DNA of 24,000 bases from an uncultured Chloroflexia bacterium. Its GTDB lineage: Bacteria; Chloroflexota; Chloroflexia; Chloroflexales; Kallotenuaceae. Of this stretch, positions 1 to 6,029 are shown piece by piece. The stretch is from the NCBI GenBank assembly GCA_963810425.1, contig CAWENH010000004.1, positions 78,746 to 102,745 on the forward strand. The letters are read 5' to 3'. The translations under genes were made by a program, and so were the position numbers. The notes beneath the pieces are model-generated. The model worked only from the letters and a program-made list of their open reading frames with translations. It was not told where the DNA came from and did not search any database. Numbering within the stretch: the first letter of the stretch is position 1; each line of letters starts with the position of its first letter.

Positions 1-1003
1 GCCACCCGTACTGCGCCGTCAGCCCGTTGGTGTACAGCTCGCGGTGCTGGCGCAGCAGGCTCAGCTTGCTGCCGCCGCCGGGGATCGCGCAGGTGCTGGA
101 GAGCAGAATCCGCACGTTGAAGCGCAGCATCATGGCGTGCAGAGCGGCCCGCAGCACCGTGTAATTAAGCGCGGTGCCGGCGATGATCACCGTGCGCTGC
201 TCGTCGTAGCGCGCGCCCTGCGGGTGGCCGTGCTGCGAGGCTCGCAGGATCGCGTCGAAGTGGTTGCCGTGCAGGCCGCGCTCGTCGGGCGCCACCTCGT
301 CCGACAGCCCCAGCTTTGGGAACGGGATGATCCGGGCATCGGGCGCGGCGATGCCGGCGGCGATGTCGTTGCTGATCCGCGCGCGCTCGGCGTCGAGCAG
401 CTCGCCGAACACCGGCGCCAGCTGCGCGACCTCCTCCTGGCAGTGGACGAAGAACAGCCCGAACTCAGCGTCCTGCGGTTCGCCAAACACCACCCGCCAC
501 TCGCCCACCGTCAGATGATCTTCGTGCAGCAGCCGCTCGGCCAGCGAGGGGTAGCGCTCGATCTTGCGGCGGTCCTCGGGCAGCAGCTGCTCATACAGCT
601 GCTTGGTCAGCCGCGTCGGCGTCAGGGCGTCGTTGTCGAACAGTGCGGGGTTGGTGTGAAAATCAAACGGCACCAGCGTCAGAATGTCCTGCGCCACGGC
701 CTGCCGCGCCAGCAGCGCCAGCGCCGCGTACTCGGGGGCGTCCAGCGGCAGCAGCCCGCCGCCGCTCTTGGGCGCCGCGCCGTCCCACTCCAGGGCCAGC
801 GGGTCGGTGATGATCAGGACCGGCTTGCGCCGCCCGCCCGGCCACACGCCGGCGCTGCGCACCGTGATCGTGCTGGTCCCCAGATACCGCTGCCAGAACG
901 GAAACCGCGCGGTCACGGGCGTCGTCGTCGGGGTCCAGATGGCGTCGTCGGGGCGGTGCGGCACCGCGCTGCGGTACATGGGCTTCCAAGCGTTCGTAGT
1001 CAT
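1..1003 (-). CDS. hypothetical protein, N-terminal ~334 codons; C-terminus lies beyond the left edge
   Basis: ATG at 1003..1001, 5 nt downstream of GGAGGA (rc of tcctcc 1009-1014). The frame is open to position 1. My hand translation (MTTNAWKPMYRSAVPHRPDDAIW...IIAGTALNYTV...AIPGGGSKL) has ordinary composition, whereas the listed + ORF 44..1027 is Arg/Ala/Gly/Gln-rich shadow. No family recognised. Confidence 0.6.
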   Translation of the reverse strand, partial: MTTNAWKPMYRSAVPHRPDDAIWTPTTTPVTARFPFWQRYLGTSTITVRSAGVWPGGRRKPVLIITDPLALEWDGAAPKSGGGLLPLDAPEYAALALLARQAVAQDILTLVPFDFHTNPALFDNDALTPTRLTKQLYEQLLPEDRRKIERYPSLAERLLHEDHLTVGEWRVVFGEPQDAEFGLFFVHCQEEVAQLAPVFGELLDAERARISNDIAAGIAAPDARIIPFPKLGLSDEVAPDERGLHGNHFDAILRASQHGHPQGARYDEQRTVIIAGTALNYTVLRAALHAMMLRFNVRILLSSTCAIPGGGSKLSLLRQHRELYTNGLTAQYGW

Positions 1004-1019
1004 ATCAATCCTCCAAGTG

Positions 1020-1040
1020 GCGAGTAGCGAGTAGCGTGCG
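1020..1040. repeat. heptamer tandem GCGAGTA x2 plus a degenerate third copy (gcgtgcg), directly abutting the 21-bp array
   Basis: Read directly: gcgagta(1020-1026) gcgagta(1027-1033) gcgtgcg(1034-1040). The complementary word recurs at 1447-1456 and 3612-3640. Confidence 0.85.
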
Positions 1041-1049
1041 AGCGTTGCC

Positions 1050-1365
1050 GAAGGTCGTGCAGGTCTTGCCGAAGGTCGTGCAGGTCTTGCCGGAGCGCGT
1101 GTAGGTCTTGCCGGAGCGCGTGCAGGTCTTGCCGAAGCCGCGTGCAGGTCTTGCCGAAGCGCGTGCAGGTCTTGCCGAAGCGCGTGCAGGTCTTGCCGAA
1201 GGTCGTGCAGGTCTTGCCGAAGCGCGTGCAGGTCTTGCCGGAGCGCGTGCAGGTCTTGCCGGAGCGCGTGCAGGTCTTGCCGGAGCGCGTGCAGGTCTTG
1301 CCGGAGCGCGTGCAGGTCTTGCCGAAGCGCGTGCAGGTCTTGCCGAAGCGCGTGCAGGTCTTGCC
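1050..1365. repeat. tandem array of 15 units of 21 bp (one unit is 22 bp), with invariant core CGTGCAGGTCTTGCC and a variable 5' part
   Basis: Counted unit by unit. The variable part is gaaggt (units 1, 2, 8), ggagcg (units 3, 4, 10-13) or gaagcg (units 6, 7, 9, 14, 15). Unit 5 (1134-1155) is gaagccg with one extra c, giving 22 nt. Unit 3 has a single core change, c to t, at 1102. There are no spacers. The array lies between the FHA gene stop (1451) and the start of the gene at 1003. Confidence 0.97.
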
Positions 1366-1403
1366 ATCGTCCCCTCTTTGCGCCTCTGCGTTAAAACCCC
1401 CCG

Positions 1404-1435
1404 CGTCTTTGCGCTCTTTGCGTCTTTGCGGTTCA
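1404..1435 (-). repeat. 32-nt element, copy A; the minus strand reads TGAACCGCAAAGACGCAAAGAGCGCAAAGACG
   Basis: Matches 30 of 32 nt with 3275..3306 in inverted orientation. Contains three GCAAAGA words. Confidence 0.9.
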
Positions 1436-1450
1436 GCCTCCTCTGACTCG

Positions 1451-1969
1451 CTACTCCGCGAAGCGAAGCAGCAGGCCCGGCGCGCGGCGGGCGGGGTCAG
1501 CCCACGGATCGCCCAGCACCAGCACATCGCCCGGCCGGAGCTGGCCCGAGCGGCCAGTCTCCAGGCTGGTGGTGCGCCCGCGGTCGCCGCCCAGCCAGAT
1601 CACCGTCGTCGCCGCGCCCTCGCGGGTGATGTGCAGCGTGTGATCCGCGTGCCGCACGACCAGCTGGCGGCGGCTGACGCCGTACTGGCGGCCGGCGGCG
1701 GCAACGTGGGGCGTCAGCCAGCCATGAATATCGAGGTCGGGCGCCTGGCCGTTCCAGGACCGGCCTAGCACCAGCGGCGTATTGAGCTGCGTGACCGCGA
1801 GCAGCTCGCCGGTCGGCTGCAGTGTGGCGGCGTCAAGGCGCTCCAGGTGGGGCGGCGCCGCCACAGGTTGCGGCGTGACGCCGGCCAGCGAGCCCAGGCA
1901 CCCCGCGCACCACAGCGCCTGCTCGTCGTTGTTGTGGCCGCAGGCCGGGCAGCACAGCACCTGGTCCAT
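1451..1969 (-). CDS. zinc-ribbon plus FHA-like domain protein (172 aa)
   Basis: Listed ORF. N-terminal CPACG-x10-CAGC zinc-ribbon pattern. C-terminal half has an FHA-like layout (LVLGRS..., GVSRRQLVVRH, LRPGDVLVLG). The start lies 2 nt after the upstream ORF stop, an operon arrangement. Confidence 0.75.
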   Translation of the reverse strand: MDQVLCCPACGHNNDEQALWCAGCLGSLAGVTPQPVAAPPHLERLDAATLQPTGELLAVTQLNTPLVLGRSWNGQAPDLDIHGWLTPHVAAAGRQYGVSRRQLVVRHADHTLHITREGAATTVIWLGGDRGRTTSLETGRSGQLRPGDVLVLGDPWADPARRAPGLLLRFAE

Positions 1970-1971
1970 AG

Positions 1972-2406
1972 CTAGCTACCCAGCTGATCGAGGCCGTCCT
2001 CGGGCAAAACGAGCCGGGTGCGCGCCGAGCGCTGCTGGTTGACATCGCCCGAGCCGAGCGCCGTCAGGTCGGCCAGCAGCGTCGTGCCGACCGCGCCGCC
2101 CAGCTGGGTGGCCATCGTCTGGGCGCGGGTGATCAGCGTCTGGTCGCCGGACGCCACGCCATCCTGCGCCGTGACCCGCGCCGCCGTCGCCAGCATCGTC
2201 TTGGCCAGCGTCTGGTCGGGCGCCGCGACCTGGGCCGGGTTGTCGGTCAATCCGACCTCAATCGCCAGCCGCGTCTCGACCGGGCCGTCGCCGGTCTCGC
2301 ACTGCACCACCAGCTGGCCGCACGTCCACATAGCCCCGGCCGGCGCGTCGCCCTGCAGCTCGAAGCTATAGCTGGCGCCCGTCGCGCCCAGCAGCCCGAG
2401 AATCAT
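1972..2406 (-). CDS. hypothetical protein (about 144 aa from ATG 2406); possibly the displaced C-terminal part of the upstream VWA protein
   Basis: Frame of listed ORF 1972..2499. The part upstream of the internal ATG at 2406 (MILGLLGATGASYSFELQGD...) is Arg/Ala/Cys-rich and overlaps the VWA frame. G/C-rich third positions switch to this frame exactly at 2406. Confidence 0.5.
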   Translation of the reverse strand: MILGLLGATGASYSFELQGDAPAGAMWTCGQLVVQCETGDGPVETRLAIEVGLTDNPAQVAAPDQTLAKTMLATAARVTAQDGVASGDQTLITRAQTMATQLGGAVGTTLLADLTALGSGDVNQQRSARTRLVLPEDGLDQLGS

Positions 2407-3206
2407 CCACCGCCTCGCCGCCGCGCAGCACCGGCACGCGACGGACCTGCGGGCGGGTGCGGGTCCAGTCGGCGACCGCCACGCCGGCGCGCGGCACAAA
2501 CGACACCAGCACGCCGTGGGCGGCGGTCGCGGCCACGCGCTGGGCCAGCTGGGCGAACATCGCCCCGAGATCGGCGGTCCCGGCCGTCACATGCTGCAGC
2601 ACCGAGCCGCCGCCGGCCAGCCCGGCCCAGCAATTCAGTACGTCGTAGTCGTAGGCCACGCCCATGCCGAACAGCGCCAGATCAATGCCGGCCTGCCGCA
2701 GCTCGGCGCACAGCTTCTGGCAGCGCTGCTCGTCGTCGGCGGGATTGACGCTGGACTGGCCATCGGTCAGCAGCACCAGGACGCGCGGGCCGGCGGCGCT
2801 TTTCAGCACGCTCGTCACCGCCGCCAGCGGCTCGGCGAAGCGCGTGGCGCCGCTGGCGTGCAGCTGCTTGGCGGCCTTGCGGAGCGCCGGGCCGCTCTGC
2901 CGCAGCCCGGATGGGCGATGCAGCCAGCGAAACTCGTCGTTGAAGGCTACCAGGCCGACCGTCGTCTGCGCCGGCAGCGCGTCGAAGGCCGCGTCGAGCG
3001 CCTTGCGGGCCAGGCGTAGGCCCTGATCCTGCCGGGGGCCGTCGCCCATGCTGGTCGAACTCATCGACCACAAAGATCACCGTCGCCGGCAGCGCCGCCG
3101 CCGTCATCGCGGGCGTCAGCGTGATCACGCCCTGCACCCGCGCCCCCGCTCGCCGCCGAATCGTCGGCTGCACCAGCTGGACTGTCGCATCTACCTGTGT
3201 TGCCAT
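2366..3206 (-). pseudogene. von Willebrand factor type A (VWA) domain protein, with the reading frame interrupted by a 1-nt indel at the MIDAS motif (assembly error or genuine pseudogene)
   Basis: ORF 2682..3218 encodes MATQVDATVQL...LPATVIFVVDEF and then becomes Arg/Ala/Gly junk. ORF 2366..3073 (TTG start, TGA immediately upstream in its frame) begins ...SSTSMGDGPRQDQGLRLARKALDAAF and continues VLVLLTDGQS...ALFGMGVAYD. Skipping one nt near 3057-3062 gives VIFVVD(E/S)STSMGDG, a canonical DxSxS. Start favoured at ATG 3206 (GGAGG 5 nt upstream); ATG 3218 is also possible. Confidence 0.75.
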
Positions 3207-3220
3207 GATGGCCTCCATTC

Positions 3221-3252
3221 GAGTTTTCAGTTTTCAGTGGTCAGTTTTCAGA
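3221..3252. repeat. heptamer word repeat TTTTCAG x3, with an extra TCAG
   Basis: Read directly: gag ttttcag ttttcag tgg tcag ttttcag a. Located immediately upstream of the VWA start. Confidence 0.85.
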
Positions 3253-3274
3253 GGGACGAGTGACGAGAGCGAGT

Positions 3275-3306
3275 TGAACCGCAAAGAAGCAAAGAGCGCA
3301 AAGAAG
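3275..3306 (+). repeat. 32-nt element, copy B; the plus strand reads TGAACCGCAAAGAAGCAAAGAGCGCAAAGAAG
   Basis: Inverted partner of 1404..1435. The two mismatches both fall at the A/C position after a GCAAAGA word. Confidence 0.9.
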
Positions 3307-3338
3307 GACGAGAGATTTGAGATGGGCTGGCGCTGGGC

Positions 3339-3563
3339 TTACTTGGCGGCCATGGCGTGCTGGGCGGCTGGCAGGCGGAGCGGCGCTGTGGGCGCGCCGC
3401 CAACGATGCGGCTGAGCGCGGCGCTGACCAGCAGCGCGACCACGATTAGCCGAAACCACCGTGGCAGCTCGACGCCGTGCAGCTCCAGCGAACCCGCCAG
3501 CTGATTGACGCCGACAAAAAAGATGGTCCCCAGAAACATCGCACTCACCAGCAGCATGCCCAT
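3339..3563 (-). CDS. small membrane protein (74 aa, two hydrophobic helices)
   Basis: Listed ORF MGMLLVSAMFLGTIFFVGVNQL...FRLIVVALLVSAAL. GAAAGG lies upstream of the ATG. Same strand as the neighbouring genes. Confidence 0.5.
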   Translation of the reverse strand: MGMLLVSAMFLGTIFFVGVNQLAGSLELHGVELPRWFRLIVVALLVSAALSRIVGGAPTAPLRLPAAQHAMAAK

Positions 3564-3611
3564 CGTCGTTGCCTTTCTATTGTGTTGGCCGTGCCAGGCC
3601 GCCCAAACTCC

Positions 3612-3640
3612 ACTCGGTACTCGCTACTCGGTTACTCGCT
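3612..3640. repeat. heptamer tandem ACTCG(G/C)T x4, the complement of the (G/C)CGAGTA word
   Basis: actcggt actcgct actcggtt actcgct, read directly. Overlaps the last codons and stop of the nicotinamidase gene. Contains ctcgctactc (3620-3629), identical to 1447-1456 and the reverse complement of 1022-1031. Confidence 0.85.
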
Positions 3641-4204
3641 GATCTCGTCGCTGGTGGCCAGCACCGCGCCGGCGGCGGTCAGCTCGGCCAGCGCGCGCTC
3701 GCCGTCGCCGGGCTGCACATTGACCGCGCGGATCGCATCGGTGACGACGACGGTGGCGAAGCCAGCCTGGAGCGCGTCGAGGGCCGTGGCCCGCACGCAG
3801 TAGTCGGTGGCCAGCCCGGTCACAAAGACCCGCTCGACGCCTTTGCTGCGCAGCCAGTCGCTGAGGCCGGTGCCGTCGAAGCCGGAGTAGGCGTCGCGCT
3901 CGGTGGTCGTGGCTTTGAGGACGACGTTGCTGAACTGCTCGTCGCGCAGGCCGGTGGGGAACGCGGCGCCGGTGGTCTCGGCCACACAGTGTGCGGGCCA
4001 GATGCCGCCGCTCGCGCTGAACGAGCAGTGGTCGCCGGGGTGCCAGTCTTTGGTGGCGACGGCCAGCGGCAGCTTGGCGAGCAGCGCCAGCGTCGGCGCG
4101 ATCACCGCGTCGCCGTCGGTGACGGCCAGCGCGCCGCCGGGCAGAAAGTCGTTCTCGATGTCAACCGCGATCAGCGCGTCGGTGGGGCGGATGGTCAGTG
4201 TCAT
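3632..4204 (-). CDS. pncA: nicotinamidase / isochorismatase-family hydrolase
   Basis: MTLTIRPTDALIAVDIENDFLPGGALAV...KDWHP..H.SF...WPAHCV...VTGLATDYCV has the isochorismatase/nicotinamidase layout (D, K, C triad context). ATG 4204 is preceded by AGGAG. The upstream extension of the listed ORF to 4234 is not needed. Confidence 0.85.
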   Translation of the reverse strand: MTLTIRPTDALIAVDIENDFLPGGALAVTDGDAVIAPTLALLAKLPLAVATKDWHPGDHCSFSASGGIWPAHCVAETTGAAFPTGLRDEQFSNVVLKATTTERDAYSGFDGTGLSDWLRSKGVERVFVTGLATDYCVRATALDALQAGFATVVVTDAIRAVNVQPGDGERALAELTAAGAVLATSDEISE

Positions 4205-5813: not shown

Positions 5814-6029
5814 ATGATCATCATCGGCACGCGCTTTTTCACCTGGGGCAGCGACCGCGACGCCCAGTCGACGCGCTGCGGACAGTGCGGCACGGTCGGC
5901 CAGTTTATTCGCAAGCAGGGCATGCGCTTTATCACGGTATTTTTTATCATCCCGCTCATCCCGATCAGTGGCATCAAGCAGATGGTGCAGTGCCCCAACT
6001 GCGCGGCCCGCTACGAGGCCCAGGGCTAG
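5814..6029 (+). CDS. zinc-ribbon domain protein with an internal hydrophobic segment (71 aa)
   Basis: CGQCG ... CPNCAARY cysteine pairs flank FITVFFIIPLIPISG. Strong GGAGGAGGAG upstream of the ATG. Confidence 0.7.
   Translation: MIIIGTRFFTWGSDRDAQSTRCGQCGTVGQFIRKQGMRFITVFFIIPLIPISGIKQMVQCPNCAARYEAQG

Follow-up and report, generated by a model that had tools for sequence, protein, structure and literature searches.

A 21-bp tandem array between two genes of a conserved cluster in an uncultured Chloroflexia bacterium

A tandem array of 21-bp units is present in a 24,000-nt stretch of contig CAWENH010000004.1 (positions 78,746 to 102,745; hereafter the window), assembled from an uncultured Chloroflexia bacterium. 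It lies in the gap between a gene encoding a zinc-ribbon and FHA-like protein and the next gene on the minus strand, which we refer to as gene X. With a probability of about 0.6, our analysis suggests that the array is a young, lineage-private, non-coding variable-number tandem repeat (VNTR), which passively lengthens the gap and possibly weakens the expression of gene X. That the array is genuine, non-coding, intercistronic and internally homogeneous can be stated directly; we infer its origin by slippage, its transcription together with the neighboring genes and any polarity effect that it may have.

Structure, authenticity and origin of the array

The array consists of 15 head-to-tail units without assigned strand (1056–1365), each made of a 15-nt core, CGTGCAGGTCTTGCC, and a 6-nt linker; only the core is left of the last unit, which is truncated at 1365. 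Fourteen of the cores are exact, and the remaining one has T in place of C at 1102. The start-to-start step is 21 nt everywhere except for one step of 22 nt, which is due to an extra C (linker gaagCCg) in the unit at 1119–1140 and displaces all reading frames across the array. Only three linkers are found, gaaggt, ggagcg and gaagcg, and they are distributed in blocks (ggagcg four times in a row, gaagcg twice as a pair). Pattern counts, spacing and Tandem Repeats Finder (1035–1365, period 21, 15.7 copies, 94% matches) all agreed with the earlier note on this DNA, which had reported 15 core copies with a single c-to-t change at 1102, three linker variants and one 22-nt unit. On reading the sequence, a degenerate 16th copy, CGTGCGAGCGTTGCCGAAGGT (1035–1055, no strand), could be recognized at the edge nearest gene X. 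This copy is identical at 17 of 21 positions, and may be either the founder of the array or an edge copy that was spared homogenization. Elsewhere in the 24 kb, the core had a single unrelated match at up to two mismatches; in shuffled sequence the mean was 0.11 matches, and none of 100 shuffles reached 16.

The array is genuine. Two independent k-mer contigs from run ERR11523665, each encoding one of the two flanking proteins, break near the array edges, as expected of short-k-mer contigs that run into a true multi-copy repeat with variant linkers. One of them (L001) corresponds to window positions 3158–1450, its end coinciding with the stop of the FHA-like gene; the other (L002) starts at window position 1074, one unit inside the array. 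Between them these contigs hold both unit-to-unit and unit-to-flank junctions. It is therefore very unlikely that the array is an assembly artefact, or has a wrong length because the long-read consensus was expanded or collapsed, and the ordered blocks of three linker variants do not resemble consensus errors either. What speaks for such errors is the local quality of the assembly and the fact that the copy number is known from one assembly. Compared with L001, which comes from the same strain, the window has three 1-nt indels in 1.7 kb and no substitutions. Reading-frame continuity assigns two of the three to the window, an extra C at 3057 and a missing C at 2401; the third is at about position 609 of L001 (window 2551). 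Correcting the former two restores one vWA gene (3218–1972, minus strand, about 415 aa), which in the window is split into three open reading frames (ORFs). Overall, frameshifting indels occur in this part of the window assembly at a rate of about one per kb. With such errors nearby, the 22-nt unit may likewise owe its extra C to an assembly indel.

The units are at least 94% identical, their variants are grouped in contiguous blocks, and divergence is greatest in the copy at the edge. Together with the truncated last copy, these features fit a recent local duplication; the suggestion of recent slippage or duplication in the earlier note is thus backed by the blocks of identical linker variants. 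The same note had proposed looking for the core in related genomes. The corresponding two-core pattern had no match in genome, metagenome or viral contigs, and blastn with the entire gap did not return any match among plasmids and phages. The locus is known from one strain or sample. A plausible course of events would begin with the duplication of 21 nt of the gap that separates the FHA-like gene from gene X, followed by amplification of the unit to about 16 copies through slipped-strand mispairing or unequal recombination. The expansion would have taken place inside a pre-existing gap of about 116 nt in a conserved gene cluster.

Coding potential and position between cistrons

The repeat unit is free of stop codons in all six frames, and array-spanning ORFs are therefore meaningless by themselves. 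The only ORF that starts within the gap, M(ARPARAS)n, runs on the minus strand from an ATG at 1367, located exactly at the distal array edge after GAGGGG, to a TGA at 1007–1005, 1 nt ahead of the gene X ATG. Its codon usage is non-coding: the GC content at third codon positions (GC3) is 0.26 and the codon score is −2.25 bits/codon, compared with 0.82–0.93 and +0.4 to +0.9 for the genes of the window. The frame of gene X itself is open through the array, but its first start codon is the ATG at 1003, which stands behind a Shine–Dalgarno (SD) sequence, GGAGGA (1014–1009). A search of 1.84 billion representative proteins returned 18 homologues of gene X. The N-termini of the homologues match the methionine encoded at 1003 in 16 of the 16 aligned sequences, and an N-terminal extension is present in none of them. 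In public annotations (a collection of 15 billion proteins) the four array-spanning ORFs are not called as genes, while a neighboring 74-aa ORF is present there. Likewise, the heptads VQVLPKR, GKTCTRF and QDLHALR had no protein match among 5.8 billion protein clusters.

The array is non-coding. We consider it extremely unlikely that it encodes a heptapeptide repeat, whether as an N-terminal extension of X or as a separate repeat protein. Such a repeat would be in keeping with a period divisible by three and with the QDLHALR frame, which makes a perfect a/d heptad. In addition, the ATG at 1367 would be in frame with X if the 22-nt unit were truly 21 nt long; the frame of this ORF relative to X hinges on that doubtful unit. 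However, apart from the homologues of X without an extension, the GC3 of the ARPARAS frame and the failure to find similar proteins or called genes, neither the QDLHALR nor the GKTCTRF frame has a start codon in the gap. The VQVLPKR frame lacks a plausible start, meets a TAG within the unit at 1098 and extends through the FHA-like gene in antisense direction. The array had been described as part of the 5′ region of a gene, and this holds in the sense that it is upstream of a start codon, but not in the sense of belonging to the coding sequence.

The gap occupies 1004–1450 on the minus strand and is 447 nt long, or 116 nt without the 331-nt array. Its flanks are as previously described, with the stop of the FHA-like gene at 1451 on one side and the SD sequence and ATG (1003) of the next minus-strand gene on the other; 31 nt separate the array end from the ATG. 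In six related loci X is co-oriented with its upstream gene at a distance of 11–172 nt. Where the upstream gene encodes the FHA-like protein, as in the window, the distance is 11 nt (L003), 12 nt (L004), 35 nt (L129) or 71 nt (L126), and where it encodes an isochorismatase-family protein, it is 132 nt (L131) or 172 nt (L130). The spacing of 11–71 nt between the FHA-like gene and X in relatives, where the operon is tight, places the array in an intercistronic position; that it belongs to a promoter region is improbable. Judging by this gene arrangement, it is most likely inside a polycistronic transcript. The idea that changes in copy number alter promoter geometry is doubtful, since X trails a co-oriented upstream gene so closely in the six loci.

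Protein binding, RNA properties and expression of gene X

In the earlier note, the array was seen as an iteron-like or cooperative protein-binding array with every core on the same face of the DNA; in such an iteron- or operator-like site, a DNA-binding protein would recognize each core. Our analysis makes this improbable. The near-invariant core at a constant 21-bp phase is what such an array would display, and by reading the sequence a weak pseudo-dyad, CAGGTCTTG, can be found in the core (6/9). However, the core has no clear dyad symmetry, and the argument from two helical turns is true of any 21-bp repeat. The invariance of the core does not carry much weight either, because the array has only about 3–4 variable sites in all: linker position 2, linker positions 5–6, core position 5 (in one unit) and one insertion. 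That three of four such sites are in the 6-nt linker has p ~0.07 under uniform placement over 21 positions, or ~0.2 if cg/gt is counted as one event. Core uniformity is thus a weak sign of constraint, and in a young array homogenized by slippage it would be uninformative.

The surroundings of the array also argue against protein binding. Pfam, NCBIfam and PADLOC searches with the flanking genes did not reveal any Rep/initiator or DNA-binding gene in the cluster, and the sole DNA-binding gene seen in the window, a LysR regulator, is about 5 kb from the array. GC content is 0.63–0.77 per 200-nt segment between 901 and 1600, leaving no AT-rich unwinding region. The array sits on a 1.01-Mb contig with housekeeping genes, and its neighbors are of the chromosomal housekeeping kind (PrmC, FakA, two DegV, RecG, PhoU and FtsW/RodA). 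No further single sites beyond chance expectation were found in the 24 kb, and relatives have the cluster without such an array. Among four features of an iteron origin, only the phased direct repeats are present; a Rep gene, an AT-rich region and a replicon context are all missing.

At the RNA level, the sense strand of the gap folds far worse than shuffled sequences (z = +6.4), and the antisense strand is ordinary in this respect (z = +1.0). Rfam searches with the gap, at both gathering and permissive thresholds, gave nothing relevant. These folding scores and the absence of an Rfam family match argue against a structured cis-regulatory RNA.

The sense RNA of the array is also rich in C (39.7% C, 28.1% G, C/G = 1.41). 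Untranslated, unstructured C-rich RNA favors loading of the termination factor Rho. In the closest relative, L126, an intrinsic terminator, GGGGATGCA-TCC-TGCATCCCC-TTTTT (5942–5972; 9-bp stem with six GC pairs, followed by T5), occupies the junction between the FHA-like gene and X, where the window has the array. The position of this terminator suggests that the junction is, in this family, a site of possible downstream attenuation.

Putting these properties together, we propose that the array is transcribed within a polycistronic mRNA without any sequence-specific partner, and that X is translated from its own SD sequence and ATG at 1003. The effect of the array would be passive. A gap that measures 11–71 nt in relatives is stretched to 447 nt here, with the loss of the close coupling between the FHA-like gene and X. 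Some 330 nt of unstructured, C-rich and probably untranslated RNA would be exposed to Rho loading, and a rising copy number would result in falling expression of X, the next gene and the kinase gene further downstream.

Several points weigh against the proposal of a passive, lineage-private VNTR. The core is more uniform than the linker, as a binding site would be, with numbers too small to tell. The antisense VQVLPKR frame has gene-like codon statistics (+0.57 bits/codon). The ATG at 1367 with its SD-like GAGGGG and three sense frames open to within 4 nt of the X ATG make ribosome delivery to X possible. Our scan of 800–3700 for promoters and intrinsic terminators found none in the gap, but the promoter part was limited to sigma-70-like signals. 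The unit appears to be private to one lineage, though other copies may exist in the source genome outside the 24 kb searched here. Finally, co-transcription, polarity and copy-number variation are all predictions.

Instead of being passive, the array could be a selected expression tuner of the contingency or mycobacterial interspersed repetitive unit (MIRU) type, in which the copy number, or a 1-nt frame state, would set the expression of X, the next gene and the kinase gene relative to the vWA and FHA-like genes. This might be achieved either through Rho-dependent polarity or through the ORF starting at 1367, which would deliver ribosomes to the start of X. We regard such a role as possible, yet unlikely. 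The C-rich, unstructured sense RNA and the L126 terminator at the equivalent junction are compatible with the first route. For the second, there is a precedent: MIRUs are inserted at start codons, contain an ORF that is coupled to the gene behind them, and have been proposed to preserve downstream expression via ribosome delivery (PMC12548453). The three sense frames of the array all end at the X ATG in one way or another. The first, preceded by GAGGGG at its own ATG, terminates in TGA-T-ATG, the second ends in an ATGA that overlaps the ATG, and the third runs in frame into X. Since all of them end within 4 nt of the X ATG, a ribosome starting at 1367 would be delivered to X, and with a period divisible by three the gain or loss of a unit would preserve the frame. 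On the other hand, open frames come cheap, with an estimated chance of about 16% that they arise by accident given the repeat and the GC content. Moreover, the codon usage of the ORF is strongly non-coding, X retains a strong SD sequence of its own, the array is known from one strain only and, unlike MIRUs, the unit is not dispersed in the window or the collections searched.

A more specific version, in which the minisatellite would be a copy-number-tunable attenuator within the operon, acting via Rho or the ribosome-delivering ORF and setting the ratio of vWA/FHA to X/unknown protein/kinase, is a speculation to which we give little credence. If true, it would represent a minisatellite phase or rheostat switch in an intercistronic position, as opposed to one in a promoter or a coding sequence. 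Were copy number shown to set downstream expression, the array would provide a clean natural intercistronic repeat rheostat. As a passive VNTR, the array alone matters little, considering that intergenic minisatellites are already known in bacterial genomes and that this one is found in a single assembly. It is likely to be useful as a VNTR marker and as a warning for annotation, since short-read assemblies are interrupted at the array and frameshifting indels are present in the surrounding long-read assembly. The gene cluster and a second repeat of the same gap, described below, are in our view more interesting than the array itself.

The gene cluster, neighboring repeats and known repeat systems

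The conserved order of the cluster is isochorismatase, vWA, zinc-ribbon/FHA, X, a protein of unknown function (~280–300 aa) and a Ser/Thr kinase. In the window, the first conserved member is an isochorismatase-family (nicotinamidase-like) gene at 3632–4204 (minus strand), and the 172-aa zinc-ribbon and FHA-like gene at 1451–1969 (minus strand) is directly upstream of the gap. The latter assignment rests on homology. Pfam gave no match for the 172-aa protein itself, but it aligns to its FHA-like counterparts from L003 and L004, and the one from L003 matches Pfam FHA at 1.7e-12, which upholds the label of an FHA gene given to it previously. The succession of vWA, zinc-ribbon/FHA and X is preserved in L003, L004, L126 and L129. 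In L125/L126 (GCA_001774615.1) the complete order is a NUDIX/NrtR-type regulator, isochorismatase, vWA, a 201-aa protein corresponding to the FHA-like one, X, a 302-aa protein and a Ser/Thr kinase. L003 has the isochorismatase gene just upstream of vWA–FHA–X, in L004 and L129 X is followed by the unknown gene and the kinase gene, and in L130 and L131 X directly follows the isochorismatase gene. The cluster was found in metagenome-assembled genomes labelled as Cyanobacteria and Deltaproteobacteria, as well as in several other assemblies and metagenome contigs. This uncharacterized cluster joins enzymes of the nicotinamide adenine dinucleotide (NAD) salvage type to vWA, FHA and kinase signaling parts.

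Gene X (P0001; 1–1003, minus strand; 386 aa, running off the window) had no match in Pfam, NCBIfam or PADLOC. Its structure was approached by modeling with a 16-sequence alignment, which raised the predicted local distance difference test (pLDDT) score to 84, with a predicted template modeling (pTM) score of 0.83; the single-sequence model had a pLDDT of 35. The best matches among solved structures were nicotinamidases (3o93, 3o90 and 3s2s; target template modeling score 0.67–0.74) and other isochorismatase-family amidases. In the alignment, the X motif IIAGTALNYTV corresponds to VTGLATDYCV of the window isochorismatase, with Thr in place of the catalytic Cys; most X homologues have Ser at this position. 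Six residues (D67, D114, E180, H187, N247 and G276) are invariant among the homologues, and H116 is nearly so. The nicotinamidase-type structural matches and the Thr-for-Cys alignment identify X, on the strength of this model, as a divergent nicotinamidase-fold paralogue.

The gap between the isochorismatase and vWA genes is also long in the window, 413 nt compared with 19 nt in L126 and overlapping ORFs in L003. It includes a 74-aa hydrophobic ORF (3339–3563, minus strand), which is a gene in public annotation and is absent from related loci. A 7-nt repeat, AGTTTTC, occurs four times just upstream of the vWA start (3222–3251, minus strand).

The two gaps have further repeats in common. A perfect 11-bp inverted repeat, GAGTAGCGAGT, delimits the array-bearing gap. 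One copy (1022–1032, plus strand) is contained in a heptamer run, (AGTAGCG)x3, at 1016–1036 (plus strand), and the other (1446–1456, minus strand) overlaps the 3′ end of the FHA-like gene (last codon and stop, GAG TAG). This 11-mer occurs four times, with 0.14 occurrences expected. At each of the four gap edges there is a run of the GAGTAGC/AGTAGCG heptamer or of its complement (1016–1036, 1446–1456, 3256–3274 and 3612–3640). The upstream genes take their stop codons from these runs, the FHA-like gene ending in GAG TAG and the isochorismatase gene in GAG TAA; the run at 3612–3640 follows the isochorismatase stop.

A dispersed element containing GCAAAGA is likewise present in both gaps. One of its arms (1406–1444, minus strand; TGAACCGCAAAGACGCAAAGAGCGCAAAGA at 1435–1406) is just upstream of the array on the sense strand, and an inverted partner arm, 87% complementary over 39 nt, is in the isochorismatase–vWA gap (3266–3304, plus strand). 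The two inverted arms bracket the vWA and FHA-like genes. In a polycistronic mRNA, they could form a duplex of −70 kcal/mol (shuffles, −40.6 ± 4.6) enclosing both cistrons, which could serve as a processing site or, at the DNA level, as a substrate for inversion. The order seen in the window, with the TCTTTGC arm first, is rare (4 of 62 metagenome copies).

A 26-mer of the element, CCGCAAAGANGCAAAGAGCGCAAAGA, is found in the window at 1406–1431 (minus strand) and 3279–3304 (plus strand), and has at least 120 exact matches in metagenome contigs (L005–L124) with GC contents of 0.32–0.69. It is thus unchanged across very different organisms. About half of the loci listed have it as the 5′ arm of a hairpin with a loop of 13–130 nt, whose partner arm is TCTTTGCG...GCGG, mostly with T>C changes. 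Its neighbors among the loci listed belong to 187 gene families, of which PDDEXK_3/GxxExxY small ORFs are the commonest (7 of 150). Rfam searches at 16 of these loci did not detect any family at the element, the sole match being an unrelated 6S RNA in L083, and a literature search for the GCAAAGA sequence found no paper. The element appears to be undescribed and very widespread in intergenic regions. A progenitor or sister array was sought among the 120 loci listed, where only micro-repeats of 7–9 nt and core matches at chance level turned up. With no comparable minisatellite at these loci, the array seems to have grown beside a copy of the element, outside the usual make-up of the latter.

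How, then, does the array compare with known repeat systems? Iterons are found in about 3–8 copies within a replicon origin, where a rep gene and an AT-rich unwinding element are their neighbors. The array resembles plasmid and phage iterons in having direct repeats of about 17–22 bp, or roughly two helical turns, but differs from them by its 15–16 copies in a chromosomal operon lacking both a rep gene and an AT-rich region. The dispersed 26-mer in its gap and the 11-bp inverted repeat at the gap bounds are reminiscent of repetitive extragenic palindromic sequences and bacterial interspersed mosaic elements (REP/BIME), enterobacterial repetitive intergenic consensus (ERIC) sequences and Correia-type miniature inverted-repeat transposable elements. 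Unlike these, the 21-bp unit is not dispersed in the window or the collections searched, and a comparable array is present at none of the 120 GCAAAGA loci listed. Classical contingency loci have units of 1–9 bp in promoters or coding regions and documented cell-to-cell variation. The array shares with them a hypermutable repeat whose length could alter the expression of a downstream gene, but its unit is 21 bp long, intercistronic and seen in one strain.

The closest architectural analogue of the array would be the mycobacterial MIRU-VNTR. MIRU units are 40–100 bp long and occupy dozens of loci per genome. The array differs in its 21-bp unit, its single locus in all collections searched and the non-coding codon usage of its internal ORF. 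At the same time, both arrangements have tandem units between co-oriented operon genes, right before a start codon, and in both the copy number is expected to vary by slippage. The internal ORF that ends at the downstream start in MIRUs (PMC12548453) may have a counterpart in the ORF at 1367–1005 of the window, the frame of which depends on the doubtful 22-nt unit.

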